A DNA stretch of 64,000 bases, from contig JBBRPR010000014.1 of the NCBI GenBank assembly GCA_038227875.1, positions 1 through 64,000 on the forward strand. Reading direction: 5' to 3'. This DNA is from Planctomycetota bacterium (GTDB taxonomy: Bacteria; Planctomycetota; SZUA-567; H5-PLA8). A model generated the notes under the pieces. It saw only the letters and a list, made by a program, of their open reading frames with translations. It searched no databases and had not been told where the DNA came from. Of this stretch, positions 29,017 through 44,858 are shown piece after piece. Within the stretch, counting starts at the first letter, position 1. Each line of letters begins with the position of its first letter. The position numbers were made by a program, and so were the translations under genes.

Positions 29017-30918
29017 CTATTTCACGCGGCTCTCGAGAATCGCACCGCACTTCTGAAACCAGAGCTTGTGCTCTTCGTCGTAGAGCGCGTCGCGCAGATC
29101 GACGAGGTAGAAATCGACGTTGTCGAGAACCGCGCCGCGCAAATCCGCGCCGCGAAGATTGGCTTTGCGGATTTCTTCCGGCGCTTTGAATCCCTGCTCG
29201 TGGAATTCGTCGGTATAGAAACCGGTCTTGCTTCCCTCGGAAGCGATGGTGCTGTTGACGTGGCCGGTGCGCGTGGAACCCATGTGAAATGTCGCGCCGG
29301 TCAGGTTCGCGCCTTGCAGATTGGCGTGAGGCCAATCGATCTCGGCCAATTTCGCGCCGAAGAGGACCGCCTTCGAGAAGTCACCCTGCGGAATGGATGA
29401 ACCGGTGAAGTCTGCTCCAGAAAGAGTTGCGGCACTGAAATTTGCCTTGGGCAGTGAAAGGAACCCGCAGTCACATCCGGCCATCGCGGCGTTAACGAAT
29501 CGCGCGCGATTGAAGTTCGCGACGCGAAGGCACTGCCGCGAGAAGCGTACGCCATCGAGAATCGCACCGGTAAAATCCGCGCCGTCGAACTTTGCGCCTT
29601 CCAGATTGGCCTGCGTAAGGTCAGCGACGAGAAATGATGCACCGCACAGATTGGCCTGCTCAAAGTTGACGTTGTTTAGTTTTGCGCTCTTGAAGCAGGA
29701 GCCGATGAAATTTCCACGCTCGAATTGAGCATCGTGAGCGTTCGCCGCCGAGAAATCAGCGCGTGTGAACCGCGTTTCGCGGCCGCGCGCGTTGCACAAT
29801 GATGCGCTGACGAATGACGCGCGGGAGCAATTGGCATTATTTAAAATGGATTGATCAAGATTGGCGTGGGTCAAATCCGCGCCCGACAAATCGGCATAGC
29901 GGAATTTCGCCTCTCGGAGTTCTGCTCCAACCCAGCTCGCGCCATGAAAATACCCGCCGGTGTAGCGTTTCACCTGCCGTACTTCGGCACGCCATGCCAT
30001 GCTGAGATGAAGGAGACTGGCGGCCATCGGGTGTGGTTTTGAGTCTCGGTTATTTACGATCTTCAGGAGGCGTTCAATTAACGGCGGTTCATTCTTGATA
30101 GCAACCGCTGCGCGTTGAATCAGTTCTCGCCGGTGTTGGTGGACAAGACAGTGTGTCTCACCGGGAGAACGCAAGTGGTCCAGAAGATGATCTCGCGCCA
30201 GTATCATTTGTACGGCGGAGTAACGCAGCACTTTGAGCTCAACCTTCTCCATGCTTTTCGTGAGTGAACTCAACAGATCGTTCACGCTCTTTTTTGATTC
30301 CTCTTTGAAAAGATTGGAGAAACTTCTAGGCGTCAGCAGCATGCCAAAACAAAATCCGCGAGCGACCTCCACGAATTCATTCTGATACGTCGCCGCGATG
30401 TACGCTTCCAGCGCGGCATCGCTCGTCGTCAGGTTCTCGTCCTTCGCCAGCGCGTCGAGCACGATCCGCCAGAGGGCCGGCTTGCCTTCCAGTGACTCCG
30501 GATGTTCGAACTTCATCACGCGGCTCATGATCGAGCCGCAGCGCTCGGGATGCGCGGCCTGGCAGTATTCGATCCACTCGTCCACGCCCCACGGCGCGAG
30601 GTGGAAGACGCCGAGATGGTCATTCTCCAGCGGCCTCTGCGCCGCATAGATCACCGGGCCGGTCTTAAGAAGGTGACGCAAGGTTCCAAGCGATGGGCAG
30701 TCGATCAACTGGATCGGGCGTTCATCGGATAGCAGCGCGGCGAGATGCTGCAACGCGGTGGTGCGGCCGGAACCCATGCCGCCGACGATTGCGATCGCAC
30801 CGTGATCGAACTCGTCCACCAGCGACGCGACTTCGCTTTCCAACGGTACAGTGCCGCCCGCCTCTGGAAGCGAGACGCGTGGACGGACCAAGGCACGGCA
30901 GGGATCAAACTCGAGCAT
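29017..30918 (-). CDS. Pentapeptide repeat protein with N-terminal P-loop (NACHT-like) region
   Basis: GGMGSGRTT near N-terminus; long A(D/N)(L/F)xx repeat region; alternative start 30978. Confidence 0.85.
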   Translation of the reverse strand: MLEFDPCRALVRPRVSLPEAGGTVPLESEVASLVDEFDHGAIAIVGGMGSGRTTALQHLAALLSDERPIQLIDCPSLGTLRHLLKTGPVIYAAQRPLENDHLGVFHLAPWGVDEWIEYCQAAHPERCGSIMSRVMKFEHPESLEGKPALWRIVLDALAKDENLTTSDAALEAYIAATYQNEFVEVARGFCFGMLLTPRSFSNLFKEESKKSVNDLLSSLTKSMEKVELKVLRYSAVQMILARDHLLDHLRSPGETHCLVHQHRRELIQRAAVAIKNEPPLIERLLKIVNNRDSKPHPMAASLLHLSMAWRAEVRQVKRYTGGYFHGASWVGAELREAKFRYADLSGADLTHANLDQSILNNANCSRASFVSASLCNARGRETRFTRADFSAANAHDAQFERGNFIGSCFKSAKLNNVNFEQANLCGASFLVADLTQANLEGAKFDGADFTGAILDGVRFSRQCLRVANFNRARFVNAAMAGCDCGFLSLPKANFSAATLSGADFTGSSIPQGDFSKAVLFGAKLAEIDWPHANLQGANLTGATFHMGSTRTGHVNSTIASEGSKTGFYTDEFHEQGFKAPEEIRKANLRGADLRGAVLDNVDFYLVDLRDALYDEEHKLWFQKCGAILESRVK

Positions 30919-31045
30919 ACGGGCCCTCATAGGAGGGAAGAATGGAAAATTGTAGCGAGGAACCATGTCCGTGGCCATACTTTCTGTTGCACTTTAATTG
31001 CGCGGCTGCGGTTGTATTTTCAGGAAGACCCGCGGGAGATCCGGA

Positions 31046-31894
31046 ATGAAATTTGGCATTCACGCTTACGCCTGGTGTTCGCAGTGGACCAACGAGTCGC
31101 TGCCGCTGATCGATCGGATCAAAGGGCTGGGGCTCGACTTCATCGAAATTCCGCTGATGTGCCTTGAGACGCTGGACACGCGCGCCGTCTCCGCGCGGCT
31201 GAAGTCCACCGGACTTGACGTGTGTACGTCGACGGTGCTGCTGAGCGGCACGGACATCACCAGCGACGACGCGGCGGTACGCAAGTCGGGCGTCGAGTAC
31301 CTGAAGGCCTGCGTGCGCGCCACGGCGGAACTCGGTGCGACCAACTTTTCCGGCGTGATCTACTCGCAGCACGTGAAGCCCGCGACGCGGCGGCCGACCG
31401 AGCAGGCGTGGGTCTACTCCGCCGATGCCCTGCGCGAGGTGGCGCGCTACGCCCGCACGCTGCACGTGAAGATCGGTCTTGAGCCGGTTAATCGGTACGA
31501 GACGTACCTCGTCAACACCTGCGAGCAGGCACGGAAATTGAAGACGCTGATTGGCGAAGACAACGTCAAGATTCATCTCGACACCTACCATATGAACATC
31601 GAAGAGAAAGACTTTTACGCGGCGACCAAGCTCGCCGGCGCGGACCTGATTCACTACCACCTCTGCGAAAACGATCGCGGCATTCCCGGCACGGGCCAGG
31701 TCGATTGGGACGGCATCTTCCGCGCGCTGGCGGAATTGAACTACGACGGCTACGCGGCGCTGGAATCGTTCGTCGACTGCACAGACAACATGAACACGTG
31801 GGTCTGGCGGCAACTGGCGCCCAACGGCGACACGCTGGTGCGCGAAGGCATCGCCTTCATCCGCAGCATGCAAAAGAAACACGGATTGAAATGA
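31046..31894 (+). CDS. D-psicose/D-tagatose 3-epimerase family protein
   Basis: LEPVNRYETY, LDTYHMNIEE, HLCENDRGIPG, ESF. Confidence 0.92.
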   Translation: MKFGIHAYAWCSQWTNESLPLIDRIKGLGLDFIEIPLMCLETLDTRAVSARLKSTGLDVCTSTVLLSGTDITSDDAAVRKSGVEYLKACVRATAELGATNFSGVIYSQHVKPATRRPTEQAWVYSADALREVARYARTLHVKIGLEPVNRYETYLVNTCEQARKLKTLIGEDNVKIHLDTYHMNIEEKDFYAATKLAGADLIHYHLCENDRGIPGTGQVDWDGIFRALAELNYDGYAALESFVDCTDNMNTWVWRQLAPNGDTLVREGIAFIRSMQKKHGLK

Positions 31895-33345
31895 TGCCTC
31901 CGCGTGCGCTGACCTTCCTTGCGTTTCTGCTGGCTCTGGCTGCGCCGCTGGCGCGAGCCGAATCGTTGACGGCCGACGACATTGACCTGCAGGCGATCTT
32001 TCGTGACAATCCCAATCAGATCCCGTCGGGTCTCGCGAGCAGCACGCCGATTCCAGTGATCTACGCGGACTTCCTCGGTGCCGTCACGGCGCGCGTGGAC
32101 AAGACGGCGCTGGCGGAATTCAAGACCGCGTTGCTCGCGGACCTTCCTCCATTCATTGATGTCAACGATCCCGTTCCCGAGAACAAGACACTCGGGGGTT
32201 TGCTGCAGCAGAACAAGAAGCGTGCCATCGCGCTGATCGTCATTGCGCTGACGAAGTTTCCAGACCATTCGAAGTGGACGATCCTGCGCGCCTGCGGCGC
32301 ACTCGACGCGGCGGAGCTCGATGAGCCGCTCGAGACCGTCGCGCTCACGGACACCAACGCGACGAACCGCGCGTTCGCGTTCAAGGCCATCGCGCAGCGC
32401 AAACAGAAGAACGCCGCCGCGCTGCTCCAGGAAGGGTTGTTCGATCCGCAGCTGTCCATCCGCCTTCTGTGCATGGAACTGCTCAGCGAGGCGGGTGAGA
32501 ATATTGGCAGCGTCACGGCGGTAATGCCTTGCCGTCCCCGGCACGCGTTTCAATTCCTCTTTTTGGAAACGGCGCTGAAGCGTGTCATGCCGACCATCGA
32601 TGCGCCGACGTTCTTCAAGCAACCATTTTCCATCCGCTATGGTGCGTTCACGGGAGCTGCGCCGGAGGTCACCAAGTCGTTCGTCGCGCTGGCTGAAAAG
32701 CGCGCGGACCGGCCGTACGCGGCGATGGTGCTCTATCTCTGCGGCGACGAGGTTGCGTCCGCCAAGGCGCTGGACACGCTGGTGAAAGTGATGCTGGAGA
32801 ACGGCAAGAAGCCGGCCGATCACCGCTCGCCGGAATTCCAGATTCAATCGGATCTCGTCGATGTCTTTCAACAGAGCACTCCGGCGCAATTCAAAGCGAT
32901 CCAGAAGATCTTCAAAACCAACCTGCGCGAATTCTCCGAGGAACGAGAAGCGCTGCTGACCACGCTGGCGTACGCGCAATCGGTCAGCGATGCGCCGGAC
33001 CTTGCCGACGATCTGCTCCGCGTGCGCGACATGCAGACCAGGAACAAGGATCTGCTGCTCGGCGCCGCGCTGGCGCTGGCTCATCATAAAAGTCCGCAGG
33101 CGATTCCATCGTTAATTCAAATCTTGAGCATGCGCTCAGACGCGTACACGGTCGTGGCGATTCAGACGCTTGAGAAACTAACCGGCATCGAGACGCCGGG
33201 CGTACCGCGTCCCGATCCGAAGACGGGCCAGTACGATCCGAAGGCCGCGTGGAACGTTCAGGGCGCGTACGACTTCTGGCGCAAGTGGATCCAGAATATG
33301 GATCACGACCTGCAGTTCGACGCCGAATCTCAGCACGTCAAGTAG
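31891..33345 (+). CDS. Secreted HEAT-repeat protein
   Basis: Signal peptide ending ARA, helical repeats, AIPSLIQIL, LEKLTG...W.KW C-terminus. Confidence 0.75.
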   Translation: MMPPRALTFLAFLLALAAPLARAESLTADDIDLQAIFRDNPNQIPSGLASSTPIPVIYADFLGAVTARVDKTALAEFKTALLADLPPFIDVNDPVPENKTLGGLLQQNKKRAIALIVIALTKFPDHSKWTILRACGALDAAELDEPLETVALTDTNATNRAFAFKAIAQRKQKNAAALLQEGLFDPQLSIRLLCMELLSEAGENIGSVTAVMPCRPRHAFQFLFLETALKRVMPTIDAPTFFKQPFSIRYGAFTGAAPEVTKSFVALAEKRADRPYAAMVLYLCGDEVASAKALDTLVKVMLENGKKPADHRSPEFQIQSDLVDVFQQSTPAQFKAIQKIFKTNLREFSEEREALLTTLAYAQSVSDAPDLADDLLRVRDMQTRNKDLLLGAALALAHHKSPQAIPSLIQILSMRSDAYTVVAIQTLEKLTGIETPGVPRPDPKTGQYDPKAAWNVQGAYDFWRKWIQNMDHDLQFDAESQHVK

Positions 33346-33346
33346 G

Positions 33347-33715
33347 CTACAGTACGTTGATCGTTCCCGAGCGCTTGTACTGCGCGAGTACCTTGCGGAC
33401 ACGCCGGCGGAGTTTTAGATCCGGATCGTTCCACATGCGTTCGATCGCCGCGACGATCTCCTCGTGCCGTTCGTTGGGCGAACCGTCGCAGAGTGTGTGC
33501 AGCACATGGCTGCGTATTGTGGCATCCGGATCGGCCGACATCTCAATCATGCGGTCCCACACACGCGGATGATTGGCTTTGAGATGGCACGGACAAAGAT
33601 TCCGCACGGCCGCTTTGCGTACGCGGATGTCCTGGTCCTGCGTCAGGGTGAGGAACTCCGCGATATCGTCGCTGTCGACGGAAACTTCAACGTAGCAGGA
33701 ATTGCGCGTGCTCAT
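33347..33715 (-). CDS. Small HEAT-repeat protein with CPCH and HTLCD motifs
   Basis: DQDIRVRKAAV, DPDATIRSHVL, DPDLKLRRRV repeats. Confidence 0.8.
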   Translation of the reverse strand: MSTRNSCYVEVSVDSDDIAEFLTLTQDQDIRVRKAAVRNLCPCHLKANHPRVWDRMIEMSADPDATIRSHVLHTLCDGSPNERHEEIVAAIERMWNDPDLKLRRRVRKVLAQYKRSGTINVL

Positions 33716-33790
33716 CGGGGACCCTCAAATTCCAGTCCCCTCAACTAAACACACGAATCGAGCATTGTCAATTCGGGCCTGTGTCCGACA

Positions 33791-33814
33791 CCAGGTATTA
33801 AATTTAATACCTGG
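33791..33814. promoter_or_regulatory. Perfect 24-bp palindrome, probable transcription factor site
   Basis: CCAGGTATTAAATTTAATACCTGG. Confidence 0.6.
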
Positions 33815-33844
33815 CAAAAACTAACAACTTGCCGCGCGTCGCTA

Positions 33845-36800
33845 TTAATGCGCGTGGGCGTGCGCGTCATGGCCGTGCGCGTGTTCATCGTGACCGTGGC
33901 CGTGTGCGGCTTCCATCGACGGCGTCGACTCGGAGACGGCAATGGAGTGATGGTCGTCGTGAACCGGAGCGGGCGCCGGCGGCTCTTCGCCGCTGCCGTC
34001 GTCGCGGACGTGCGCGGCTTCGTAGCCGTAGGCCTGCGCAAGCACCTGGATCGGGTGGAGCGTCTTCTTCTCCGCGCCGTGTTCCATCTGCATGCGGCAG
34101 CACGAGCTCTCGCTCATCGCGTACTCGATGCCTTTACGCTCGTCCTTGAGCTGTTCGAAGAGCTTCTTGCCGATCCACATCGACTCGTCGTAGTTCTTTT
34201 TGATCATTCCCCACATCGACGGATTGCCGCAACATCCGTGGTCGAGCTGCACGACCTTGACACCGGGGACCAGCTTGACCAGGTCGATGCCCGGCGTGCC
34301 GATATGCAGCGACTTGTGATGGCAGGCCTGATGGTAGCCGACGACCGCATCGACCTTCTGGAAATTGGTCTTCAGCTTGCGCTCGCTTTTCAGCTTCATC
34401 AGGAACTGGCCGATCTCGTATGTGTGGCGCGCGACGGCGCGCGTCTCGGGGGTGTCGACGTAGGTCAGGAAATCTTCCTGCAGGCACATGCAGGCTGTAG
34501 CGTCGAGCGCGACAATCGGGATGCCCTTGAACGCGTACGGCGCGAGCACTCCGGCGACTTTCGTCACGTGTTCGCGGCTGGCTTCGACCGCGCCTTCGCT
34601 CAGCGTGGGGCTCTTGCACCACGGCGCGTCGGGAAGGTCAACTTCGAAGCCGTGGTGTTCGAGGACATCGATGGCAGCCTGGGCCAGTTGCGGATTGCAG
34701 TACTTGGCGTCGAGATCGAGATAGAGCACCGCCTTCGGGCGGTCGGAACCGGGGGAGGGCATGTAGCGGCGCTGCGGACGCCAGCGCTTGAGCTGCGGAA
34801 GCTTGTAGCGATGGTCGATCCCCGTCACGGCTTCGCGGATCATGCGCGCGGGCAGGGTGTTGACCAGCGAATTGAAGAGTGGCGACACGTATGAGGCCGC
34901 GCGGAAAACGTCCTCCATGCTGGAGAGCGCCACAGTGCTCGCGGGCAGACTGTTGGACTGGTAGTGGCGCGCCTTGGCTTCGAGCACGAGCTTGGGGATA
35001 TTGACGTTTGACGGGCAACCGTCGTGGCAGAGCTTGCAGTTGAAACACGTGTTCATGACTTCCAGCAGCTCTTCGCTGCCGAACGATCCGCCGACCTGCC
35101 GGCCGGTCATCATGCGGCGCAGGACGTTGGCCTTGGCGCGTGGCGACGCGTCTTCAATGCGTTCGTACTTGAAGCGCGGACACATCTCTTCTTCAGGTCC
35201 GGTCGTGCGGCAGTAACCGCAGCCGTTGCAGCTCTCGGCTTCCTTGGCCATCTCGGCGCCGGCCCACTTTAGGGGCGAGCCGCCGTGGACGTGGACTTCG
35301 GCGCTGCTGGTGGCGATGCGTTCGACGGTACCTTCGGTGCGCACGGCCGTCTGCGATTTGAACATGCGGAAGTTCGCGGCCTGCGTCGGGTCGATGGAGC
35401 TGGGCTTCGGCCGTTCGCCGGTGCTGAACTGGTAGGCCGCGCCGAGGCGCAGGTTCTTGAGCATGAGATGCGCATCGGCCGTGATCTTCTTCTGCGGATT
35501 GAGCAGGCCGGACGGATCGAAGATCGATTTCAGTTCCTTGAAGACGGCGTAGAGTTCCTTGCCGGCCTGTTTTTCGAGCCACTGCGAGCGGGCGAGGCCT
35601 TCACCGTGCGTGCCGGAGATGGTGCCGCCGACTTCCCAGACCGCCGCGTGAATTTCGCCGGCGACCTTTTCGAGGATGTCGAGGTGTTCCTTCTGATGCA
35701 GATCCATCATCGGCATCAGATGCACTTCGCCCTGGCCAGCGTTGGCCCAGGCGCTCCATTCGAGCTTGTACTTCTCGCAGATCTTCCCGGCCTTCTCAAT
35801 GTATGCGGCGAGCTTGTCGAGCGGCACGACGGCGTCTTCGACGACCGGCACCGGCTGCAGGTTGTCCTTGCGGCGGTAGAGCATGGACGTGCCGGCGACG
35901 CGCGCGGCCCAGATTTTCGCTTCCTGTTCCGGCTCCATCACGCGTCGCGACTTCACGTGCGGAATTTCCTTGAGCTTGGCTTCGACGGCGGTGAGGCGAT
36001 CGGTGACGTCGGCTTCGGCTTGGCCTTCGAATTCGAGAATCAGCACAGCCTTCGCGCTTTCGGGCACGGCGAATTCCTGCGGCGCGGCCTGGCGGCGCAG
36101 CAGCATCATCTTTTCATCCAGCATCTCGCAGCCGAACGGATTGAGCGCGCGCAGAGCCGGGACGGCCTTGGCGGCGTCGAGCAGCGTCTTGAAGTAAACT
36201 TCGAGCATGCCGATGCGTTCAGGAAGCGGATGAACCTTCAGCACCGCCTGCGTGACGATGCCGAGCGTGCCTTCGCTGCCGCAGAGGACGCGCGAGAGGT
36301 CGTAGACTTCTCCCGAGACAACGCCATCGACCAAATAGCCGGCGCGGTTGCGTTCGGTCTTCACGGCTTTCGAGGCGATCAGCGCGGCGTTTTTCTGGAG
36401 CAGCGCGGGAACTTCGCGGTGGACCTTGCCGCTCAAGCCTTCTTCGCGCTTCTTGCCTTCGATATCGGCGCCGGCGAGTTTCACCGGATTGGCCAGCGTG
36501 ACGGTGCCGTCCATCAGGCAGAGGCGCGCACCGACGAGATTCTTGCGCGTATCGCCGTAGAACGCGGAGTGCGGGCCGGAACCGTTGCGCGCGATCATGC
36601 CGCCCACGGTGGAGCGGTTGCCGTTGAGAGGATCGGGGCCGACGCGGAAGCCGTGGGGCTTAAGCGCGCGGTTGAGGCTGTCGAGCACCACGCCGGTCTG
36701 CACGGTGACCTGCTTGCGGCCTTTATCCAGTTCGATGATGCCCTTCATGTACACGGACAGATCGACGATGATGCCCTTGGCCAGCGATTCGCCGGTGACG

Positions 36801-37048
36801 CCCGAGCCGCTGCCGCGCGCGACAACCGGGATGCCGTGCTTCTGGCCAAACCACATGCAGCTGCGCACATCCAGTTCGTCCAGCGGATGGACGACCAGCA
36901 GCGGTTCGATCTCGTAGATTGAGCCGTCGGTGGCGTACATGCTGCGCGTGAACGGATCGTCGTAGACGTCGCCTTTCACCATCTCGCGCAGGGCGCGGGC
37001 GAGCGTGCTGGGTGAACGATCGAGAATGTCGGATGTGGCCAGGGACAT
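33845..37048 (-). CDS. FAD-binding / Fe-S (GlcD-GlcF fusion-like) oxidoreductase homologue with His-rich tail
   Basis: ARGSGSGVTGES, GSEGTLG, LLNPQK, CNGCGYC, CFNCKLCHDGCP, CCG domain. Confidence 0.9.
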   Translation of the reverse strand: MSLATSDILDRSPSTLARALREMVKGDVYDDPFTRSMYATDGSIYEIEPLLVVHPLDELDVRSCMWFGQKHGIPVVARGSGSGVTGESLAKGIIVDLSVYMKGIIELDKGRKQVTVQTGVVLDSLNRALKPHGFRVGPDPLNGNRSTVGGMIARNGSGPHSAFYGDTRKNLVGARLCLMDGTVTLANPVKLAGADIEGKKREEGLSGKVHREVPALLQKNAALIASKAVKTERNRAGYLVDGVVSGEVYDLSRVLCGSEGTLGIVTQAVLKVHPLPERIGMLEVYFKTLLDAAKAVPALRALNPFGCEMLDEKMMLLRRQAAPQEFAVPESAKAVLILEFEGQAEADVTDRLTAVEAKLKEIPHVKSRRVMEPEQEAKIWAARVAGTSMLYRRKDNLQPVPVVEDAVVPLDKLAAYIEKAGKICEKYKLEWSAWANAGQGEVHLMPMMDLHQKEHLDILEKVAGEIHAAVWEVGGTISGTHGEGLARSQWLEKQAGKELYAVFKELKSIFDPSGLLNPQKKITADAHLMLKNLRLGAAYQFSTGERPKPSSIDPTQAANFRMFKSQTAVRTEGTVERIATSSAEVHVHGGSPLKWAGAEMAKEAESCNGCGYCRTTGPEEEMCPRFKYERIEDASPRAKANVLRRMMTGRQVGGSFGSEELLEVMNTCFNCKLCHDGCPSNVNIPKLVLEAKARHYQSNSLPASTVALSSMEDVFRAASYVSPLFNSLVNTLPARMIREAVTGIDHRYKLPQLKRWRPQRRYMPSPGSDRPKAVLYLDLDAKYCNPQLAQAAIDVLEHHGFEVDLPDAPWCKSPTLSEGAVEASREHVTKVAGVLAPYAFKGIPIVALDATACMCLQEDFLTYVDTPETRAVARHTYEIGQFLMKLKSERKLKTNFQKVDAVVGYHQACHHKSLHIGTPGIDLVKLVPGVKVVQLDHGCCGNPSMWGMIKKNYDESMWIGKKLFEQLKDERKGIEYAMSESSCCRMQMEHGAEKKTLHPIQVLAQAYGYEAAHVRDDGSGEEPPAPAPVHDDHHSIAVSESTPSMEAAHGHGHDEHAHGHDAHAHAH

Positions 37049-37050
37049 GG

Positions 37051-37632
37051 TTACTCCTCTTTTATCGATACTTTCCTGAAGCGGTCTTCAACTGCGTGCT
37101 GCGCCAGGATCCAGTCAACGGCTTCCGGCAGGGTTGGCGCGAGCAGGTCGGGCACGTATTCCTTCTTCAAGTTCGCCGGGTTGGGCAGATTCTCGCGGCA
37201 CAGAATCGTGCGGCAGCCGGCAGCTTTTCCCATCTCGATGTCGCGCCCCGAATCGCCGATCACAAAACTGGCGGCCGGGTTGAGTCGGTGTTCCTTGCAC
37301 GCGTTCTGAATCATCCGCGGCGACGGCTTTCGGCAACCGCAGGCGTCGTCGGGATGATGCGGGCAGAAGTAGACCGCATCGAACGCCTGTTCCCCCAAGT
37401 GCCCCTGCATGCGCGCATGGATGTCGTGCAAGGCTTCCAGCGGCATCAACCCTCTTCCCACGCCGCTCTGATTGGTGATCAGCGCGATGAAGAAGTCCTG
37501 CTTGCGAAGCCGGATCAGTTGTTCGGCCACGCCGGGCATGAACTGAAACATCTCCCAGGACAACACAAACTGCCCCGGCCCCGGAAAAACGTTGACTACC
37601 CCGTCGCGGTCGAAGAACACGGCATGACGCAT
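37051..37632 (-). CDS. gmhB: D,D-heptose 1,7-bisphosphate phosphatase-like HAD hydrolase
   Basis: FFDRDGVVN, ITNQSG, CPHHPDDACGCRKP, GDSGRD. Confidence 0.9.
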   Translation of the reverse strand: MRHAVFFDRDGVVNVFPGPGQFVLSWEMFQFMPGVAEQLIRLRKQDFFIALITNQSGVGRGLMPLEALHDIHARMQGHLGEQAFDAVYFCPHHPDDACGCRKPSPRMIQNACKEHRLNPAASFVIGDSGRDIEMGKAAGCRTILCRENLPNPANLKKEYVPDLLAPTLPEAVDWILAQHAVEDRFRKVSIKEE

Positions 37633-37856
37633 GGACGTTTGCTCTCGTTGGTGTCACAGCCATTGTCGACCATAAGCCCAAGTGCTGCAAGTGCGGCTCT
37701 TGGTTGCGACTTGGTGCCAGTGCCGTGGCCTGACAGATACACGATCTGTGCTTCCACTGCGATCGCACTGGCAGGCCGGACTTTCACTCCGCTCAAGTCC
37801 GTCCGTGCCAGTGGCAACTCATCCCGCCAGGCCCCAAGAGCCAAGAGCTGCCCTAT

Positions 37857-39500
37857 CTAGTTCTCCACAACTCCCACGCCACGGCACGGGAAGATCTGCG
37901 CGGTCAGCGCGGTCGCTTCGAGCTGGCGCGGCAGGTAGTAGGCGCTGTTCAGGTTCTCGACAAGCATCTTGTAGCTCTCGAGTTTGCAGAGGATCGCGAC
38001 ACGCTGCGTGCCGGACCAGCGGGCGGCGAGGACGCCGGGAACGTTCAGGGCCAGATCGCAGAGCAGATCGGTTTCCAGCGAACTACCAGCAGAGCGGCCC
38101 GACTGACGCCAGAGCGGGTCGCCGTGTTCGGACATCGAGAGCAGTTCGTCGTCGCCGGTGCCGTGGAGGATCGGGCGGACGGATTCGACGCGGCCACTGG
38201 CGGTCAGTTCGTGGGAAACGGACGCTTCGCCCACCTGGCCGATGTTCATGAACGCAGCGATGCGGCCGAGATCGGCGTGGCGCAGGGCGTCACCGGCGCG
38301 GGCGGCGCGCTGGAGTTCAGCGAAGACGAAGAGTAGCTTTTCACGCGGGAAGTAGCCCTGCTTCGGATCGGGATGCTGCGTGAAGCGCTGCTTCAAATCC
38401 TTGGCGAACGACTCGGCGAGTCCGGATTCGAGTGCCGCGGAACGGGAGATGGCCTGCGGGATCTTCGTCAGCAGTTCCAGCAGCAGTTCGTCGGGCATGG
38501 TGAAGTCGCGGCCCGCGTCGGCGGTCGAGAGGCGCTTGAGCGCTTCCTTCTGGAAAAGAGCCATGCCGATCTGCGTGGTCGTCGCGCGGTAGCTGCCGTG
38601 ACCGGCGGGAGAGGCGTCGGGCACTCCGGCGTGAGCGATGACCAGGCAATGTCCGGCAAGCGTCGCCTTGGTCTTGGCGCGCGCGGGGCTGCGGCCTGCG
38701 TAGGTCAGTTCGTTGGGCATGCCGAAGAGCACCGAGCCCATGCTGCTGCGGCGGCCGGCGCAGCCCGACTGCGCTTCCGCGCACCAGCCGGCGAATTCGG
38801 CGAGCGGAATCTTGGCCCATTCGCCCGACGCGGCGGCGATCGAAGCCAGCGTGGCAGCGACGAGCGTGGTGTCCGAGTGCGACGTGTAGCCGGGCGGCAG
38901 AATGCTGCCGACGACGATGTTCAGGCCGGGAATGTTGAGCTCGACTTGTCCCGTCGGTCCCTTGTGGCGGTTGACGTAGTAGACCAGCGCGGCCTTCAGC
39001 GGCGCCGACCATCCGGTCGCGGCGCCGAAATTCTCAGCGGCGTAGGTGCGCCAATCCAGCGCGCGGGTTTTTGGCGCGGATGCAAAGAGATCAAATTCCA
39101 CCGGCGCGAACTGACCATCGACGTGCGCGACGGTGATCTTCTTGTCCGTGCGCGGCGAGACGCAGAGAACCGTCTCGTAACACGCGGCGCTGAGCGTCGA
39201 GCCGCCGAAGTCTTCGAGATGAAGTCCGACCAGGTCCAGGCTTTCCGGCGCGCGCATCAGGAAACATTTGGTGCCGTCGCCATGGAGCTCCGCGAACTTC
39301 TTCACCAGCGCCGTGTAAAGGTCGAGAACCTTGTTCTCAAACTTGGCCGGCGATTCATCGACCAGGCCGTGGTTGAGCTGGATCTTCGAAAGTATCAGCG
39401 TGCCGGGGACGCCGGGTTGCAACATCAACTGCCACATCTTCGGTGAACGCAGCGACGACAGCGGGACGATCGGTTCATTGCAGACAATCGGATTGGACAT
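37857..39500 (-). CDS. Galactokinase-like GHMP protein with degenerate motifs
   Basis: RAPESLDLVGLHLED for APGRVNLIGEHTDY; SSLETDLLCDLALNVPGVLAAR C-terminal signature. Confidence 0.8.
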   Translation of the reverse strand: MSNPIVCNEPIVPLSSLRSPKMWQLMLQPGVPGTLILSKIQLNHGLVDESPAKFENKVLDLYTALVKKFAELHGDGTKCFLMRAPESLDLVGLHLEDFGGSTLSAACYETVLCVSPRTDKKITVAHVDGQFAPVEFDLFASAPKTRALDWRTYAAENFGAATGWSAPLKAALVYYVNRHKGPTGQVELNIPGLNIVVGSILPPGYTSHSDTTLVAATLASIAAASGEWAKIPLAEFAGWCAEAQSGCAGRRSSMGSVLFGMPNELTYAGRSPARAKTKATLAGHCLVIAHAGVPDASPAGHGSYRATTTQIGMALFQKEALKRLSTADAGRDFTMPDELLLELLTKIPQAISRSAALESGLAESFAKDLKQRFTQHPDPKQGYFPREKLLFVFAELQRAARAGDALRHADLGRIAAFMNIGQVGEASVSHELTASGRVESVRPILHGTGDDELLSMSEHGDPLWRQSGRSAGSSLETDLLCDLALNVPGVLAARWSGTQRVAILCKLESYKMLVENLNSAYYLPRQLEATALTAQIFPCRGVGVVEN

Positions 39501-39565
39501 TGACTCGTAGACTCTCCTGGACAGCCCTTAGTTGCTGGGAATGGAAGTGAAAGGTGTCGAAAGCA

Positions 39566-40537
39566 TTATGCCTTGGCCAGCTCGTGGATGCACTTCAAGA
39601 TCGAGGCTTCCGAGGGCAGCGCGGCCGGTGTGCAGACCGGCACATCCAGCGCGCATTCGCGGCGGATCGGCGCATCGAGATCGTCGAAGCCGTGTTCCAT
39701 GATGCGCATCGCCAGTTCGCTGCTGAAGCCGCCATTGGACGGTGCATCGGCACAGAGCAGCAGGCGGCCGGTTTTCTTGAGCGATTCGAGCACGCAGACG
39801 AGGTCGACCGGCGTGAGCGTGCGCAGGTCGATCAACTCTGTTTGAATGCCGGACTGCGCCGCCGCTTTCTCGCACGCCGCGGCCGCTTTGCGGATGACGC
39901 TGCCGTAGCCGACGACGGTGAGGTCCTTGCCGCGGCGCAGCACGCGTGCGAGGCCGAAGGGAATTTCTGGAATCGCGACGGCGGTGTCTCCGCTGATGGC
40001 GTAGAGCTCCGGGAATTCAAAGAGCACCACCGGATTATCGTTGCCGTGGAGCGCGGTGCGCAGCAGGCCGCAGGCATCGGCGGAGGAAGAAGGGGAGGCG
40101 ACGAGCAGGCCGGGCACGTGCGTGCACCAGGATTCCCAGCCGTGAGTGCTATTGGACGCAGGTTCGGTGAGCACGCGGAGCGTGATCGGCGCGGCGAGCT
40201 GGCCGGAGGTCAGCCACGCCGTGCGGGTCGCGCCGGCGGCCAGGGAATCGAGCGCAAACGGGAGATCGTCGGGCGAGGAGAGTTCCACGACCGGTCGGTA
40301 ACCGCAGAGCGCCGCGCCGACGGCCGCAGAGACCAGCGCCGCGGCGCTGGCCGGCGAACTGCGGATGCGTTCAGCGCTGAATTTGTCGCGGAGTTCGCGG
40401 TAGACGGACCCGGCGTCACTGGGATGCGAATGGGCGGAGTCTTCACCGTGGATGAGCACAATCTTGGCGTTGGCGCGCATCTCGCGAGCCAGCGTGGTGA
40501 CCAGCAGATGTTCCTGAGTTTGCGTGTGTTCGCTCAT
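39566..40537 (-). CDS. 2-oxoacid dehydrogenase E1 beta-subunit homologue, degenerate
   Basis: GED, GAALCGYRPVVE, HVPGL, DNPVVLFE, IDLRTL, KKTGRL, LDAPIRR. Confidence 0.88.
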   Translation of the reverse strand: MSEHTQTQEHLLVTTLAREMRANAKIVLIHGEDSAHSHPSDAGSVYRELRDKFSAERIRSSPASAAALVSAAVGAALCGYRPVVELSSPDDLPFALDSLAAGATRTAWLTSGQLAAPITLRVLTEPASNSTHGWESWCTHVPGLLVASPSSSADACGLLRTALHGNDNPVVLFEFPELYAISGDTAVAIPEIPFGLARVLRRGKDLTVVGYGSVIRKAAAACEKAAAQSGIQTELIDLRTLTPVDLVCVLESLKKTGRLLLCADAPSNGGFSSELAMRIMEHGFDDLDAPIRRECALDVPVCTPAALPSEASILKCIHELAKA

Positions 40538-40773
40538 CGCGGCGCCAGCGAGCCCATTGCGTAAAGTTGACGTAAGTTGTGTAACAGATTGGGCGGGCGG
40601 ATCAACGGTAACGGCGGTTTTGGTGGGGGGCAGTAAATCACCGCTAACGACCAAAGACCCCAACGCAACATCCCGCGATAGACCATGGGAAATAGGGTGT
40701 ACTTATAAGAATTCGATAAGCTGCTCGCGTTGGTGTGTGTATCAGCAAATCCAGTCGACCATTTAATCCTATG

Positions 40774-42288
40774 TCATGGCAACGGGCTGATGGATATGTT
40801 GCCGGTGACCGACTCGATTCGAAGTTGGTGTGAGCCATCGCCGAGCGTGCCGTCAATTTTCTCACCGATATCATATTCACGCTTCTTTGCCTGAATCAGA
40901 CCCGGCACCGAACATTTAGCGCTGCCGTTGTTGCTCTCCGCATGGACTTTGGCGTTCAACGTGGGAGACAACCGCAGCCGGATCGAGCCGTTGCTTGCTT
41001 CAATTTTGGTGTCATCGGCAAGTACGGAGATATCGGCGGTGATGCTGCCGGTCACGCTCACTAATTTTTTGATTCCCGACGGCCCGGAGATGTCGATGCT
41101 GCCGTTTGACGCACTGGCCTCGATCAATCCGCCGCAGTTCTCCAGGCGAATCTTTCCCGTGATGCTTTCCAGGCGACCGGTCTGGGCAACGTCGCTGAGC
41201 TGAATGCCGCCATTGGACGCCGACGCGCTGGCCAGGCTGGCGGCGTTCTGAACTCGAATGGCGCCGGTCACCGTCGACAACGGGCCCACGTGTTTGGCGC
41301 CGCGAATCTGGATGCCCCCGTTGGAGGCTTCGGCGCTTTCCACGTCGCCCACGTCGCTGACGCGAATGGCGCCCGTGACGGAGGAGAGTTTGCCTGTGCC
41401 CTGGGTGCGCGCAATTTCAATGCTGCCGTTGGAGCACGAGGCGGTCACCACGCCCCGCAAGCCGTCCATTCGAATGGTTCCGGTGGTGGATTCCAGCACG
41501 GGTGTGCCGGCTGAGCCTACCACGTTAATATCCCCGGTGGATGTACGTACGTTGCCCAGGTTTCCGTTCCTGGGGATTCCAATCTCGTAGTCCACGTTGA
41601 ACAGAAGCGTGCTGTCCTTCGACTCCGTCCTGACGCTGACGTCGCCGTTGGCCTGTGTGCTCACGCGAACCGTGACGTTCTTGAGTGCATCCTTGTCCGC
41701 GCCGGCGGCGGCGGGTTCCAGGAGCCGCTTGCCGTTGATGATAATGATGGAGTTGACGCTGCCGGCATTTCCCAGCACGCTTTTGATGGCGTGAATGGTG
41801 AGTTGGTTGCCATCGATCTCTTTGATGCTGATCGTGCCACAAGTATTTTCCACGTGCAGCGCAGCGCGCGGACTCAGCGGGACTGTGGTCTCGAAAACGT
41901 CGGCGGTGGCGGTGGGGCTCGTGGGGTCAGCGATGTCAGCCTTCTCGGCGGGCTTCGGCGGCACGTCACGGTCCTCTTCAGCGACTGTCGTGCGCGAGTG
42001 ATCGGGGTTTGCGCCTTTGGCCACGGGAGTGGCCGGTTTGCGTCCCCACACCAGCGCCAGCCCGAGCATCAAGGCGACGAGCGCCGCGACGGCAATGGTC
42101 GGCCAGGCGGAAACCGCTTCTTCGCGCCGCGGCAAGGCATCGCCACTGGGCTCGTTCTGAAGACGCAGGCGCAACTGTGCCAGGCGGGCAGACGAGGGGA
42201 TCGTTTCCCGATCCGCGTCCCACCGCTGCAGTGCGCGTTGCAGCGCGGCCTGTTCCGGTTTTGAAAGATCCGTTTCGTCGGCGTTCAT
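40774..42288 (-). CDS. Anti-sigma-like membrane protein with DUF4097/adhesin-like beta-repeat domain
   Basis: Short N-terminal domain, one TM helix, alternating S.TG.I / SNG.I repeats; overlaps the ECF gene stop. Confidence 0.8.
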   Translation of the reverse strand: MNADETDLSKPEQAALQRALQRWDADRETIPSSARLAQLRLRLQNEPSGDALPRREEAVSAWPTIAVAALVALMLGLALVWGRKPATPVAKGANPDHSRTTVAEEDRDVPPKPAEKADIADPTSPTATADVFETTVPLSPRAALHVENTCGTISIKEIDGNQLTIHAIKSVLGNAGSVNSIIIINGKRLLEPAAAGADKDALKNVTVRVSTQANGDVSVRTESKDSTLLFNVDYEIGIPRNGNLGNVRTSTGDINVVGSAGTPVLESTTGTIRMDGLRGVVTASCSNGSIEIARTQGTGKLSSVTGAIRVSDVGDVESAEASNGGIQIRGAKHVGPLSTVTGAIRVQNAASLASASASNGGIQLSDVAQTGRLESITGKIRLENCGGLIEASASNGSIDISGPSGIKKLVSVTGSITADISVLADDTKIEASNGSIRLRLSPTLNAKVHAESNNGSAKCSVPGLIQAKKREYDIGEKIDGTLGDGSHQLRIESVTGNISISPLP

Positions 42289-42878
42289 GATTTGTGCTCC
42301 GGAGAAAGCAGCGTCCGCAGTTCTGCAATGGCGCGAAAAAGGCGCACCCGCACGTTGACGCCGGAATCGCCGATGATGCGGCCAATCTGCGCCGGCTCAA
42401 GATCGTGGAAAAACCGCAGTACCACGATTTCCCGCGCGGCCGCCGGTAATTTCTCAATCGCGGCCGTGACACGGCCGGCGTCTTCCAATGCCACGATCAT
42501 CTCATCGGGCGAAAGAGCCGGTTGCTGTCGCATCGGCGAGGGGTCGGAGGCGTGATCGAATTCCAGTTCCCCCCGCGCGCGCCGTTTGCGCAGCAGGCTC
42601 AGCGCCGTGTTGCGCGCGATGCAAAGCACCCAGGTGTCAAAGGACTGCCCGTCGCCGTCAAAGTTCGCCAGGTTTTTAAGCACCTGCAGCAGCGTGTCCT
42701 GAGTCACATCGTCGGACGCCGCTTTCTGCCGGACGATCGCGCGCGCCAGCGCGTGGATGCGGGGTTCCTGGCGTTCAATGATCTGCTCCAGCGCGGCATC
42801 GTCGCCGGACCGAGCCAGCGTCAATATCCTTGCCTGTTCCGCGGCGGAGGGCTCCTGAGGTCTGTTCATCGTGAGCAT
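42285..42878 (-). CDS. ECF sigma factor
   Basis: Region 2 (DDVTQDT, FDTWVLCIARN) and region 4 (LP...REIVVLRF...VRVRLFRA). Confidence 0.93.
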   Translation of the reverse strand: MLTMNRPQEPSAAEQARILTLARSGDDAALEQIIERQEPRIHALARAIVRQKAASDDVTQDTLLQVLKNLANFDGDGQSFDTWVLCIARNTALSLLRKRRARGELEFDHASDPSPMRQQPALSPDEMIVALEDAGRVTAAIEKLPAAAREIVVLRFFHDLEPAQIGRIIGDSGVNVRVRLFRAIAELRTLLSPEHKS

Positions 42879-43043
42879 ATGTTAGTGTCGTGATCCATTG
42901 CCGTGAAATTTTCTTTGTACAAATGAGTCTTCACGCAAGCCAACGCGCCAGCGCGCGCAGCGTTTCAAAATCCATGAAAAAAGAGACAGGGGACCTATTG
43001 ATTCTCACATGGTGCAACGCAACATGGGAGAAAGGACAATTCG

Positions 43044-43655
43044 TCAGGCGCCGCGCTTCCGGCTTTTTTGCATCTGGATAAAGAGCCAGACGCCGGCAGC
43101 GAGACTGAACAGCATCGACGCATGGCCGAGCATCCGCACCATCAGGCCGAGGCCTTCGCAGTGTTCGATCAGGCCGAAGTGCGAGAAGAGCCAGTGCCAA
43201 TCGTGGATGATGATGCCGTCGCCGCCTTCGGCCGAAACCAGCGGCAGGGCTTGGGCTCGGGCGTCCTGCATGTAGACGGACATGCTGACCAGATTGGTGC
43301 TCAGCCAGCCGAAGCAGAACGAGATCGCGAAATAGTCGCGCTGCTTGAGGAACATGAACATCGAGAAGATCGGCGCGGCGAGCTGCAGAATCGTACCGCC
43401 GGCGACATGAAAAAATTCACCGAAGGGGCGGAAGAGCAGATGGCCGCCTTCGTGGATCGGCAGATTTAAACTCTGCAGCGCATTCCAGCTCTCGGGCTCT
43501 TTGAATTGAGAGAACCCCAGCCACGCGGTGTAGAGCCACAGGATCGCGCGGATTTCCCAGCTGCGGCCCTTGCACCAATCGAGGATGTCTTCATAGAGCC
43601 CCGCGGCGAATTCGCTGACGCGCGTGCCGAAATCCGTTTCGCCGCTTCGGCTCAT
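43044..43655 (-). CDS. Membrane protein with HExxH motif (peptidase M50-like)
   Basis: LPIHEGGHLLF, AGG, HDW; ATGA overlap with the gluQ stop. Confidence 0.7.
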   Translation of the reverse strand: MSRSGETDFGTRVSEFAAGLYEDILDWCKGRSWEIRAILWLYTAWLGFSQFKEPESWNALQSLNLPIHEGGHLLFRPFGEFFHVAGGTILQLAAPIFSMFMFLKQRDYFAISFCFGWLSTNLVSMSVYMQDARAQALPLVSAEGGDGIIIHDWHWLFSHFGLIEHCEGLGLMVRMLGHASMLFSLAAGVWLFIQMQKSRKRGA

Positions 43656-44620
43656 TTTTTCGGCTGCTCCAGTTCGGCAAGTTTCTCGGGCGTCAACACC
43701 ACGCGCTCGCGGTTGACGGTACTCCACGACCACAGCGGGAGCAAATCGCGCGGCATCGCCGACGAGCCGCACGGCAGGCCCGACCAGCGCGCCAGCGTGG
43801 CGATAATGTGCGAGGGGGCGATGCCCGCCGCGCGGAGACTGGCGATGCGCGCGTCGCCGTGGCGCTTGGCCAGGCGCTTGCCGTCCGGTCCGACGACGAG
43901 TGGGACGTGGCCGAACCTGGGGATCGGCGCGCCGAGCAGCCGGTAGAGGAGAATCTGTCGGCCGGTGCTGGAGATCAAGTCGTCGCCGCGCACTACTTCA
44001 GTGACATTCATGGCGATGTCGTCGGCGACGACGGCCAGCTGATAGGCCGGATTGTCCGGACCTTTCGCGACGATAAAGTCGCCGATGGTATTGTACACGT
44101 CGATGGCGTGCGGGCCGCTGAGCAGATCCGTGTAGTCAACGCGACCAGGATCGACTTTGAGGCGCCACGCCGGCGCGCGGCCGGTGGGCGAAGCGGCGAT
44201 GGCGCTGGCTTCGTCGGCGAACTTCCCGCGGCAGAGGCCGGGGTAGCGCAATTCGCCCTCGGAGTCCGCGTCGCCTTCGTGCGGGGCACTCTGCGCCGCG
44301 GCGATGTCGCCGCGTGTGCAGATGCAGGGGTAGATCGCGCCGATTGCGCGGAGTCGCTCATGGATCTGCAGGTAATAGGCGCGCCGCTGAGTCTGGACGC
44401 AGCCGTCGGGGCCTTCGTCCCAGTCAAAGCCGAGCCACGTCAGGTCGTCGAGCATTTTCTCGGTGACACCGGGCTTGACGCGCGGCGAATCAAGATCCTC
44501 GACACGCATGATCACGCGCCCGTTTTGCGCGCGCGCGGAAAGCCACGCCCAGAGAAACGTCCGGATGTTTCCGAGATGGAGCGCGCCGGTGGGGGATGGC
44601 GCCAACCGGGAAGTGATCAT
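43652..44620 (-). CDS. gluQ: Glutamyl-Q tRNA(Asp) synthetase
   Basis: RLAPSPTGALHLGN, YPCICTR, YQLAVVADD, VVRGDDL, RLAKRHG; no anticodon-binding domain. Confidence 0.93.
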   Translation of the reverse strand: MITSRLAPSPTGALHLGNIRTFLWAWLSARAQNGRVIMRVEDLDSPRVKPGVTEKMLDDLTWLGFDWDEGPDGCVQTQRRAYYLQIHERLRAIGAIYPCICTRGDIAAAQSAPHEGDADSEGELRYPGLCRGKFADEASAIAASPTGRAPAWRLKVDPGRVDYTDLLSGPHAIDVYNTIGDFIVAKGPDNPAYQLAVVADDIAMNVTEVVRGDDLISSTGRQILLYRLLGAPIPRFGHVPLVVGPDGKRLAKRHGDARIASLRAAGIAPSHIIATLARWSGLPCGSSAMPRDLLPLWSWSTVNRERVVLTPEKLAELEQPKK

Positions 44621-44680
44621 TTTCCATTTTCCATCGGTCATTTTCCATTTTCCATCGGACCGGCAGCGCGCCGATGGAAA
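44617..44680. repeat. TTTTCCA heptamer repeat (two 21-bp units plus a short inverted arm)
   Basis: tcattttccattttccatcgg x2 then ccgatggaaa. Confidence 0.85.
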
Positions 44681-44858
44681 GAGACGTTGTGTGTCAGGGA
44701 GCAAGCGGCTGTTTGCTTGCTCCCTGCTCAAACGCTACGCATACAGAATTCGGCGCACTTCCGCCATGCGAAATCGAATCCGCTGGCGCGAAAAGTCGCG
44801 CGCAACAGCAAGAAGCAAGCATACGGCCGCTTGCTCCTTGACACACAGACCCGTCTCT
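44681..44858. repeat. REP-like doublet, GAGCAAGC family
   Basis: tgtgtgtcagggagcaagcggctgtttgcttgct versus agcaagcatacggccgcttgctccttgacacaca, inverted. Confidence 0.8.

Follow-up and report, generated by a model that had tools for sequence, protein, structure and literature searches.

We analysed a window of 64,000 nucleotides (contig JBBRPR010000014.1, positions 1 to 64,000, of the Planctomycetota bacterium assembly GCA_038227875.1) around a string of four minus-strand genes (Table 1). The source is a planctomycete of soil or sediment; its genome, G000, amounts to 9.3 Mb in 176 contigs, with a completeness of 88%. In order of transcription the genes encode a homologue of the beta subunit of pyruvate dehydrogenase (PDH)-type E1 (E1-beta-like), a galactokinase-fold protein (GHMP-like), a HAD-IIIA phosphatase and a YdiJ-like oxidoreductase. 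An earlier note on this DNA, made from the sequence alone, had raised the possibility that the four make up a single undescribed system, with three inactive proteins around an intact phosphatase. We lean, by a modest degree, towards two separately inherited two-gene units, E1-beta/pseudokinase and phosphatase/YdiJ-type, that abut in this lineage.

Table 1. Genes of the four-gene string and the gap between its two pairs (aa, amino acids; FAD, flavin adenine dinucleotide).
Feature	Positions	Strand	Length	Place
E1-beta-like (PDH-type E1-beta homologue, pseudo-E1-beta)	39566-40537	-	323 aa from ATG	First gene of pair 1
GHMP-like (galactokinase-fold pseudokinase)	37857-39500	-	547 aa	Second gene of pair 1
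Gap	37633-37856		224 bp	Between pair 1 and pair 2
HAD-IIIA phosphatase (GmhB/HisB-N type), intact	37051-37632	-	193 aa	First gene of pair 2
YdiJ-like FAD / 2x[4Fe-4S] / CCG oxidoreductase	33845-37048	-	1067 aa	Second gene of pair 2

The coordinates and frames that the note gave were confirmed: all four genes are co-oriented and full length, with no internal stops. The open frame of E1-beta-like extends to a TTG at 40663, and homologues share the Met start at its ATG. Besides the gap between the pairs, the intergenic spaces are 65 bp (E1-beta-like to GHMP-like) and 2 bp (phosphatase to YdiJ-like); the YdiJ-like ATG lies 2 nt past the phosphatase stop, and its Shine-Dalgarno sequence lies within the end of the phosphatase gene. 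Scans of 33000-43200, the 224-bp gap included, gave no Rfam match at E <= 0.1, no sigma-70-like promoter and 12 terminator-like sites where 10.2 were expected, none of these on the minus strand inside an intergenic gap of the string. A codon adaptation index (CAI)-like measure was computed against 419 long open reading frames (ORFs) of the genome, a rough set that may include shadow ORFs, and is 0.81 for YdiJ-like, 0.65 for the phosphatase, 0.77 for GHMP-like and 0.76 for E1-beta-like, against a genome mean of 0.69 (sd 0.09). Codon usage of the four genes is thus host-typical or better; the note had called it host-typical for the two largest.

E1-beta-like aligns with E1-beta chains of known structure at E 1e-39 to 3e-40 and carries both Pfam domains of the family, Transketolase_C (94.9 bits) and Transket_pyr (41.5 bits, cut-off 27; the orthologue in G001, the nearest searchable genome, scores 156.3). 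It fails the cut-offs of two NCBIfam models of PDH E1-beta (NF006667, 199.2 vs 321; NF008854, 201.4 vs 454), the first of which the G001 protein passes with 373.2. In E1 structures the Glu of the motif 'TP(I/L)SE' activates N1' of thiamine diphosphate (ThDP). This motif is 'DTPLSE' in 1um9_B, 'DTPLNE' in 1ik6_A and 'DTPISE' in canonical relatives; E1-beta-like reads 'SSPASA', with Ala for the Glu. In place of 'AAQHSQS' it has 'ASNSTHG', in a stretch shortened by four residues and without HSQS, and 'EIQ(F/Y).D(F/Y)' is replaced by 'ELSSPDD'.

Identity drops in a clear step among the 3547 proteins that a database search found at E <= 1e-30: seven clusters lie at 74-89% and another eleven at 44-49%, with generic E1-beta below about 41%. 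We aligned 21 sequences, including six full-length clusters of the first class, ten of the second and four generic proteins. The losses are common to all six close relatives. Six of the ten at 44-49% are fully canonical ('DTPISE', 'HSQS'), and the other four (P0042, P0046, P0047 and P0048) are degenerate in other ways. Mean identity within the degenerate clade is 0.73 in the Pyr domain and 0.83 in the C-terminal domain, an order opposite to that of the canonical clade (0.89 and 0.81). Since the order flips between the two clades, constraint on the catalytic Pyr domain of the degenerate clade is weaker but still present.

No E1-alpha gene lies beside E1-beta-like, whose neighbours are the GHMP-like gene and a gene for a DUF4097 protein. 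A candidate partner is a stand-alone alpha-like gene elsewhere in G000 (C2:199420-200853). Its product matches 1um9_A at E 1.2e-16, reaches only 76.5 bits with E1_dh, and scores 113 with TIGR03181 (cut-off 411.35); the G001 alpha scores 363, below a cut-off of 393.85. At the position of 'FGDGATSEG' the G000 protein reads 'FCTPNDLAKGSF' ('FGDG' having become 'FCTPND'), the 'ENN' stretch is deleted, and 'GKGGSMH' and 'YRYRGHS' are lost. Orthologues of the alpha-like protein (34-40% identity) are found in G001, G003, G005 and G008, so that with G000 they occupy the same five genomes as the beta-like orthologues (43-50%). Residue states of both subunits were compared in G000, G001, G005 and G008, G003 being left out. 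G001 has the canonical form of both, and G000 and G005 have degenerate forms of both; G008 has a degenerate beta and a partly degenerate alpha, which keeps GDG and has lost ENN, GGSMH and YRYRGHS. The simplest reading is that the alpha-like and beta-like proteins would be two halves of one PDH-type E1 that abandoned ThDP in some lineages. The note had suggested that the inactive proteins might be partners of active paralogues. For E1-beta-like such a paralogue is not needed, the likely partner being itself the degenerate, unlinked alpha-like protein. The G000 complement of 7 E1_dh and 11 Transketolase_C matches does include a canonical adjacent alpha/beta pair, also on C2, and several alpha-beta fusions.

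The nearest known system is the heterotetrameric E1 (alpha2beta2; Thermus thermophilus 1um9, Pyrobaculum 1ik6), which has the same two-domain beta subunit and which the G001 orthologues resemble as a working PDH-type E1. The G000 proteins depart from it in lacking the Glu and HSQS of beta and the GDG, NN, GGSMH and YRYRGHS of alpha; their genes are unlinked, and no E2 or E3 gene stands beside either in the loci read. We also observed that the alpha-like gene is followed by one for a secreted HEAT-like protein of about 360 aa (G000:C2:198205-199293; minus strand in locus L045:286-1374), with a signal peptide, a HEAT-like/coiled-coil region and, in Pfam, only a weak HEAT_2 match. The follower is conserved behind the alpha-like gene in G000, G001 (50% identity), G003 (44%) and G008 (38%).

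GHMP-like matches no family of Pfam, be it GHMP_kinases_N, GHMP_kinases_C, GalKase_gal_bdg or any other; galactokinase models match the N-terminal part only, at E about 1e-4, and the galactokinase NCBIfam model gives 20.6 bits vs 499. A profile built from 21 GHMP-like sequences identifies the family in the PDB (GalNAc kinase 2a2c_A, 9.8e-17; GALK1, 2.8e-14; Gal3p, 1.1e-10). The AlphaFold model is confident (predicted local distance difference test, pLDDT, 89.9; predicted template modelling score, pTM, 0.89). Its top Foldseek matches are GalNAc kinase, Gal1p, Gal3p and GALK1 at E 1e-16 to 7e-20, with 2a2c at E 7.1e-20 and template modelling (TM) scores of 0.61/0.74. The protein is thus predicted to have the two-domain GHMP fold.

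The kinase motifs are gone from this fold. The phosphate loop of motif II, for which we took P-x-x-x-G-L-(G/S)-S-S-(A/S) as the pattern, reads 'PPGYTSHSDTTL' in GHMP-like, aligned to 'PPSSGLSSSSAL' of 2a2c_A and to 'P..AGLSSSS' of relatives. The catalytic 'GDH' is 'RSS' (in 'GRRSSMG'), so that the catalytic Asp (G-x-x-D) is lost, and motif III, 'GAGLGGC' (GAGxGGC), is replaced with a deletion of three residues ('ARWSGTQR---V'). All 20 aligned clade members carry the same substitutes at motifs I-III and at the catalytic Asp. The clade reads 'ES(L/I).L(V/I)G.H....GG' in motif I and 'P.G...HSDTTL' in the P-loop; 'GRRS..G' replaces the relatives' 'RGG.GDH', and the three-residue deletion their 'GAGLGGC'.

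A word-based search found 29 GHMP-like clusters at 40-86% identity, the few with a named taxon being Planctomycetota metagenome-assembled genomes (MAGs). The clade is narrow: a phylum-wide sample of 401 genomes has it in 3, all of one family (f1). Of the 40 nearest relatives 5 have the gene, and of the 16 among these 40 that belong to the same family 4 have it. An ESM Atlas feature search with GHMP-like led to the same family, and an exhaustive profile search gave 2964 relatives at E <= 1e-3. Outside the clade, 18 of the 20 best representatives aligned keep GLSSSS, GDH and GAGxGGC (P0232 reads GAGRGGC); P0239 keeps GLSSSS and reads GDQ and GGGLGGC. Judged by its residues, the window's GHMP-like clade is an old and conserved pseudokinase, in every member seen.

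The nearest relatives in sequence (up to 438 bits) are long bacterial galactokinase-like sugar-1-kinases of about 520-560 aa (P0232-P0252). They share their length and an N-terminal extension with GHMP-like, and they keep motifs I-III, the catalytic Asp and three Pfam domains, none of which the window's clade has kept. The three Pfam galactokinase domains are present in all seven canonical relatives scanned, four of which also have an N-terminal nucleotidyltransferase, and a homologue in G026 (28% identity, canonical motifs) adjoins a hexapeptide-repeat protein. The canonical relatives, the nucleotidyltransferase fusions and this neighbour together suggest that the ancestor of the clade was a sugar-1-kinase of an NDP-sugar salvage route. 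In P0242, a member of the canonical long family, motif II, the catalytic Asp and motif III have been lost independently, and loss of kinase motifs may thus recur in that family.

As far as sequence can tell, ThDP catalysis by the G000 E1 and ATP-dependent phosphorylation by GHMP-like are excluded. In the open-access full-text literature we found no description of a bacterial GHMP pseudokinase clade or of a cofactor-free E1. In Saccharomyces cerevisiae the galactokinase paralogue Gal3p offers a useful comparison: it has no kinase activity and serves as a ligand sensor that binds Gal80p. It still binds ATP and galactose, and its motifs are almost intact. Gal3p has the same galactokinase fold as GHMP-like (PDB 3v2u and 3v5r, both titled as complexes with Gal80p; Foldseek E 4.1e-19, TM 0.62-0.66). 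Gal3p may be called the nearest known analogue of GHMP-like in principle; the difference is that in the planctomycete clade nothing is left of the P-loop, motif III or the sugar-site residues.

The phosphatase keeps all its motifs: 'FFDRDGV' (DxD), 'TNQSG' (Thr/Ser), 'CRKPSP' (Lys), 'GDSGRD' (GDxxxD) and the Zn-binding 'CPHHPDDACGC' (CxH...CxC); DxD, CxH..CxC and GD had been pointed out in the note. It matches 4pnh_A at E 6.1e-28 and passes the broad HAD-IIIA models (TIGR01656, 131.1, cut-off 84.15; TIGR01662, 102.9, cut-off 44.6), and it stays below the cut-offs of the GmhB models (NF006506, 140.2 vs 178; TIGR00213, 106.7 vs 149.6). With GmhB (PDB 4pnh, 3l8h, 2gmw) it thus shares the HAD-IIIA fold and the DxD, CxH...CxC and GD motifs; it differs in its scores and in its neighbour, a flavoprotein gene rather than one of the heptose pathway. 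No heptose-pathway context (gmhA, hldE, hddA) accompanies it, and its conserved neighbour is the YdiJ-like gene. Among the three HAD-IIIA genes of G000, a GmhB-like paralogue on C63 (41763-42191; region 41763-42721) lies beside a GmhA-like SIS gene and is a better candidate for the heptose pathway. Because only the broad models are passed and the C63 paralogue adjoins a GmhA-like gene, the name GmhB is not secure for the window phosphatase.

YdiJ-like has the YdiJ-type architecture (FAD_binding_4, 125.6; FAD-oxidase_C, 164.4; Fer4_17, Fer4_8 and CCG), and its best NCBIfam match is NF049975 (YdiJ), with 404.8 bits against an equivalog cut-off of 1350. Both CxxCxxC...CP Fe-S motifs and both CCG motifs are intact. 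E. coli YdiJ, which has FAD and a [4Fe-4S] cluster, is reported to act as a D-2-hydroxyglutarate dehydrogenase (PMC9504171). For human D-2-hydroxyglutarate dehydrogenase (D-2-HGDH) the Zn ligands are given as His434, His441 and Glu475, each single mutant being inactive, and these three with Arg386 and His476 are described as conserved in D-lactate dehydrogenase (D-LDH) and GlcD (PMC7801405). The window protein has replaced two of the three ligands, 'HAGxGxxH' reading 'NAGQGEVH' (H to N) and 'SGEHG' reading 'SGTHG' (E to T). Of the five essential residues it keeps the Arg (in 'WAARVAG'), the second Zn-site His and the catalytic-His position (in 'GTHG'). The claim of three catalytic-residue losses thus holds for E1-beta-like and GHMP-like and only in part for YdiJ-like, in which two Zn ligands are gone and the Fe-S and CCG cysteines and the Arg remain.

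Of 50 family members aligned, 37 have the full H..H..E set, even some as distant as 33-36% identity. N..H..T is found in the window protein, P0151 and P0152, and H..H..T in P0153 and P0162 of the same sub-clade, in which P0154 and P0155 have other replacements (E to T included in P0154). Outside the sub-clade, P0164, P0165, P0168 and P0177 have lost the Glu or a His in various ways, and P0187 reads A..H..E. Almost all site residues are lost in P0179 (from G004), and the Fe-S cysteines are lost there and in P0177. Since two of three Zn ligands are replaced, canonical D-2-hydroxy-acid oxidation has most likely been lost or changed in the window protein. The E. coli enzyme and the D-2-HGDH/D-LDH/GlcD group share FAD_binding_4, FAD-oxidase_C, the two Fe-S motifs and CCG with it; unlike E. 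coli YdiJ, it has the Zn-ligand losses, a His-rich tail and a HAD-IIIA phosphatase as neighbour. The tail (33845-34050) is acidic, with 14 His in the last 70 residues, and tails with at least 6 His in the last 70 residues are found in 23 of 32 planctomycete orthologues compared, mostly ending in His. It may bind metal.

Gene order separates the string into its two pairs. Around GHMP-like we counted 13 distinct loci, the window included, each with at least 1 kb upstream (L031 and L034 were left out). E1-beta-like stands beside it in six (the window, L027, L028, which equals L022 and L041, L029, L039 and, divergently, L036) and not in seven (L030, L032, L035, L037, L038, L040 and L042). Five further E1-beta/GHMP pairs appear to be co-located, as judged from equal longest-contig sizes (31853, 25565, 9605, 44857 and 26897 bp). 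E1-beta-like is the only neighbour of GHMP-like that recurs across subclades, and no GmhB-like or YdiJ-like gene lies near GHMP-like in any of the relatives' loci read. YdiJ-like orthologues occur in 13 of the 40 relatives. Among 11 relatives' loci, a GmhB-like gene lies directly upstream of YdiJ-like in seven (G001, G006, G010, G011, G012, G018 and G019) and none lies within 1.5 kb upstream in G002, G004, G014 and G017 (the unpublished genome G017 serves solely for this tally and for a single row of residues); four wider loci showed no further conserved neighbour of this pair. Rows from the high-GC loci L047, L063, L065, L067 and L071, where shadow ORFs had been picked, were disregarded in the analysis. 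In G001 the two pairs are on different contigs, E1-beta/GHMP on C165 and GmhB/YdiJ on C8. Because the pairs recur separately in relatives and lie apart in G001, the four-gene string is a recent juxtaposition of two older pairs. As a side observation, neighbouring genes in the relatives' loci bear the planctomycete-specific domains PSCyt1, PSD1 and DUF1570, and the relatives with names are Planctomycetota MAGs.

These patterns bear directly on the proposal of one system of three inactive proteins working with the phosphatase. Co-orientation, tight spacing (65, 224 and 2 bp) and the lack of a minus-strand terminator-like site in the gaps speak for it, as do the losses in E1-beta-like and YdiJ-like, which are of similar depth and common to relatives down to about 73-75% identity. 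The pairs are never together in relatives whose DNA was readable, and the phyletic patterns differ (GHMP-like in 5 of 40 relatives, YdiJ-like in 13 of 40). Synteny is conserved within each pair (6/13 and 7/11) and not for the four genes together, and we consider a single system quite improbable.

Several observations weigh against two independent units as we have drawn them. One close relative seems to hold E1-beta-like (P0031, 89%), GHMP-like (P0002, 86%) and YdiJ-like (P0152, 84%) on one contig of 31853 bp, their shared contig being deduced from its size and their adjacency not seen; because it appears to keep three of the four genes together, a lineage-specific functional link between the pairs is possible. 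G009, G013 and G015 have the pseudokinase with only generic E1-beta matches (33-35% identity), and G005 and G008 have E1-beta-like with no pseudokinase found by the window query, in genomes that are 83-91% complete; GHMP-like and E1-beta-like are not obligate partners. (A 547-aa ORF behind the G005 E1-beta-like gene, taken up by its size as a candidate GHMP-like gene, was rejected as a prolyl-tRNA synthetase.) The alpha-beta correlation comes from four related, non-independent genomes, and we treat it for that reason as a lead and not as a statistic. YdiJ-like may still be an enzyme, since it keeps FAD and Fe-S binding together with the Arg and the His proposed as catalytic, and it is at most a candidate pseudoenzyme. 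Finally, the synonymous excess described below was counted on short contigs (longest pieces about 500 bases) that mix strains or relatives, and on 40 of 525 differences.

Strain differences were taken from contigs of four metagenome runs (two studies), and we counted the 40 best supported of 525, of which 36 fall in the four genes. Synonymous to non-synonymous differences are 11:6 in YdiJ-like, 6:0 in the phosphatase gene, 7:1 in GHMP-like and 4:1 in E1-beta-like. Of the 12 indels listed in related strains, six lie in the 224-bp gap, and the coding ones sum to 3 and 9 bases, multiples of three. Frames stay intact across the clades despite protein divergence of 11-26% in E1-beta, up to 57% in GHMP-like and up to 27% in the YdiJ-like sub-clade. 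The mostly synonymous differences and the intact frames over 11-57% divergence point to maintenance of the four genes by purifying selection.

These data answer a further alternative, that the genes are redundant paralogues in early decay, with selection relaxed after duplication and the frames as yet unbroken. The wealth of paralogues in G000 (the E1_dh and Transketolase_C matches with their canonical pair on C2, and three HAD-IIIA genes) would fit it, as would the faster evolution of the Pyr domain than of the C domain in the degenerate beta clade. Against it stand the intact frames clade-wide, the mostly synonymous differences, the typical or better codon usage and the confident pseudokinase model, and we hold early decay to be very unlikely. 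The expectation that active sites were lost without gene decay, and that orthologues would carry the same substitutions, is borne out in the close relatives of E1-beta-like (6/6), in P0151 and P0152 for YdiJ-like, and in the GHMP-like clade (20/20).

We propose the following for the two units. In the first, the beta subunit would have been canonical, as it is in sister lineages, and would have lost its ThDP-activating Glu in the G000 lineage, while the unlinked alpha-like partner (C2:199420-200853) would have lost its GDG...NN motif for ThDP-Mg. Because the C-terminal domain of beta and the C-terminal 'KGW.EG..GL' motif of alpha are conserved, the two may still assemble into a cofactor-free alpha2beta2 shell kept for binding and not for catalysis. 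The pseudokinase could be a ligand-binding or protein-binding partner that does not act in the same reaction and that may touch E1-beta-like; its gene is found linked with canonical and with degenerate versions of the beta gene alike. In the second unit, the intact phosphatase would be translationally coupled to the YdiJ-type FAD/Fe-S dehydrogenase, the two probably forming an enzymatic couple in most relatives, with an acceptor site that was changed or lost in the G000 lineage.

The same residues can be read the other way, as active enzymes with new chemistry in which conserved replacements build new sites and the phosphatase feeds its product to the flavoprotein. Candidate new-site residues are 'HSDTTL', 'HKGPTGQ(I/V)E' and 'GRR' in GHMP-like and the Asn and Thr in YdiJ-like. 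The GHMP-like clade has 33 invariant columns and many nearly so, with the charged residues R83, R117, D119, H179, E395, R398, R401, D410 and E476; YdiJ-like retains the scores of its FAD domains, all cysteines of the Fe-S and CCG motifs, the Arg and the position of the second His, and it forms with the phosphatase a conserved pair coupled through the 2-nt spacer and the internal Shine-Dalgarno sequence. The E1 has lost its ThDP site on both sides (GDG and NN in alpha, the Glu in beta), and the replacements vary by lineage ('SSPASA', 'TAPLDA', 'SFERQA'; 'TPN', 'DDD'), as one would expect from relaxed constraint rather than from a new site. Losses in the YdiJ-like family are likewise heterogeneous (N..T, H..T, L..T/N, H..G/R, D..A), and P0177 and P0179 have no Fe-S cysteines. 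We regard new chemistry as unlikely on the whole, with enough in its favour to be kept in view.

Our preferred reading of two abutting units can also be extended. In that case both subunits of a PDH-type E1 (several times, and in step with each other) as well as a sugar-1-kinase would have become cofactor-free binding proteins in the planctomycete family. Jointly, and without catalysis, these would sense metabolites or serve as a scaffold, a bacterial equivalent of what Gal3p does in yeast, and in the G000 lineage they would be joined physically and functionally to the phosphatase and a remodelled flavoprotein. This extension is improbable as it stands.

The surroundings of the string hold further genes. 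Directly upstream of E1-beta-like is a 504-aa DUF4097 'toastrack' protein (40774-42288, -) with an anti-sigma-like N-terminal region, overlapped by an extracytoplasmic function (ECF) sigma factor gene (42285-42878, -). This ECF sigma/anti-sigma pair was rejected as part of the unit because it is beside the pair-1 genes in no relative's locus. HEAT-repeat proteins lie at the downstream end (483 aa, 31894-33345, +; 122 aa, 33347-33715, -), and beyond them (29017-30978) a protein of 653 aa whose N-terminus has a P-loop (weak AAA_22 match) and which contains seven pentapeptide-repeat stretches. On the other side, 43652-44731 encodes a 359-aa protein with the class-I GluRS/GlnRS catalytic domain only, without the anticodon-binding part, a make-up that we take to resemble that of GluQ-RS-type enzymes.

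Bacterial pseudoenzymes with comparative evidence are rarely documented, and this locus supplies a family-wide GHMP pseudokinase clade with known active relatives and a confident model. The alpha and beta genes of the E1 are unlinked, yet each subunit gave up its half of the ThDP site in step with the other, a natural experiment on an E1 shell without its cofactor; the YdiJ-type flavoprotein family has lost its Zn site several times. Annotation pipelines would name these proteins "pyruvate dehydrogenase E1 beta", "galactokinase" and "FAD-binding oxidoreductase", and metabolic models built from such names would be wrong. Should the proteins turn out to act as sensors or as scaffolds, they would be regulatory parts of a new kind; otherwise the locus is a well-described case of drift from enzyme to non-enzyme.

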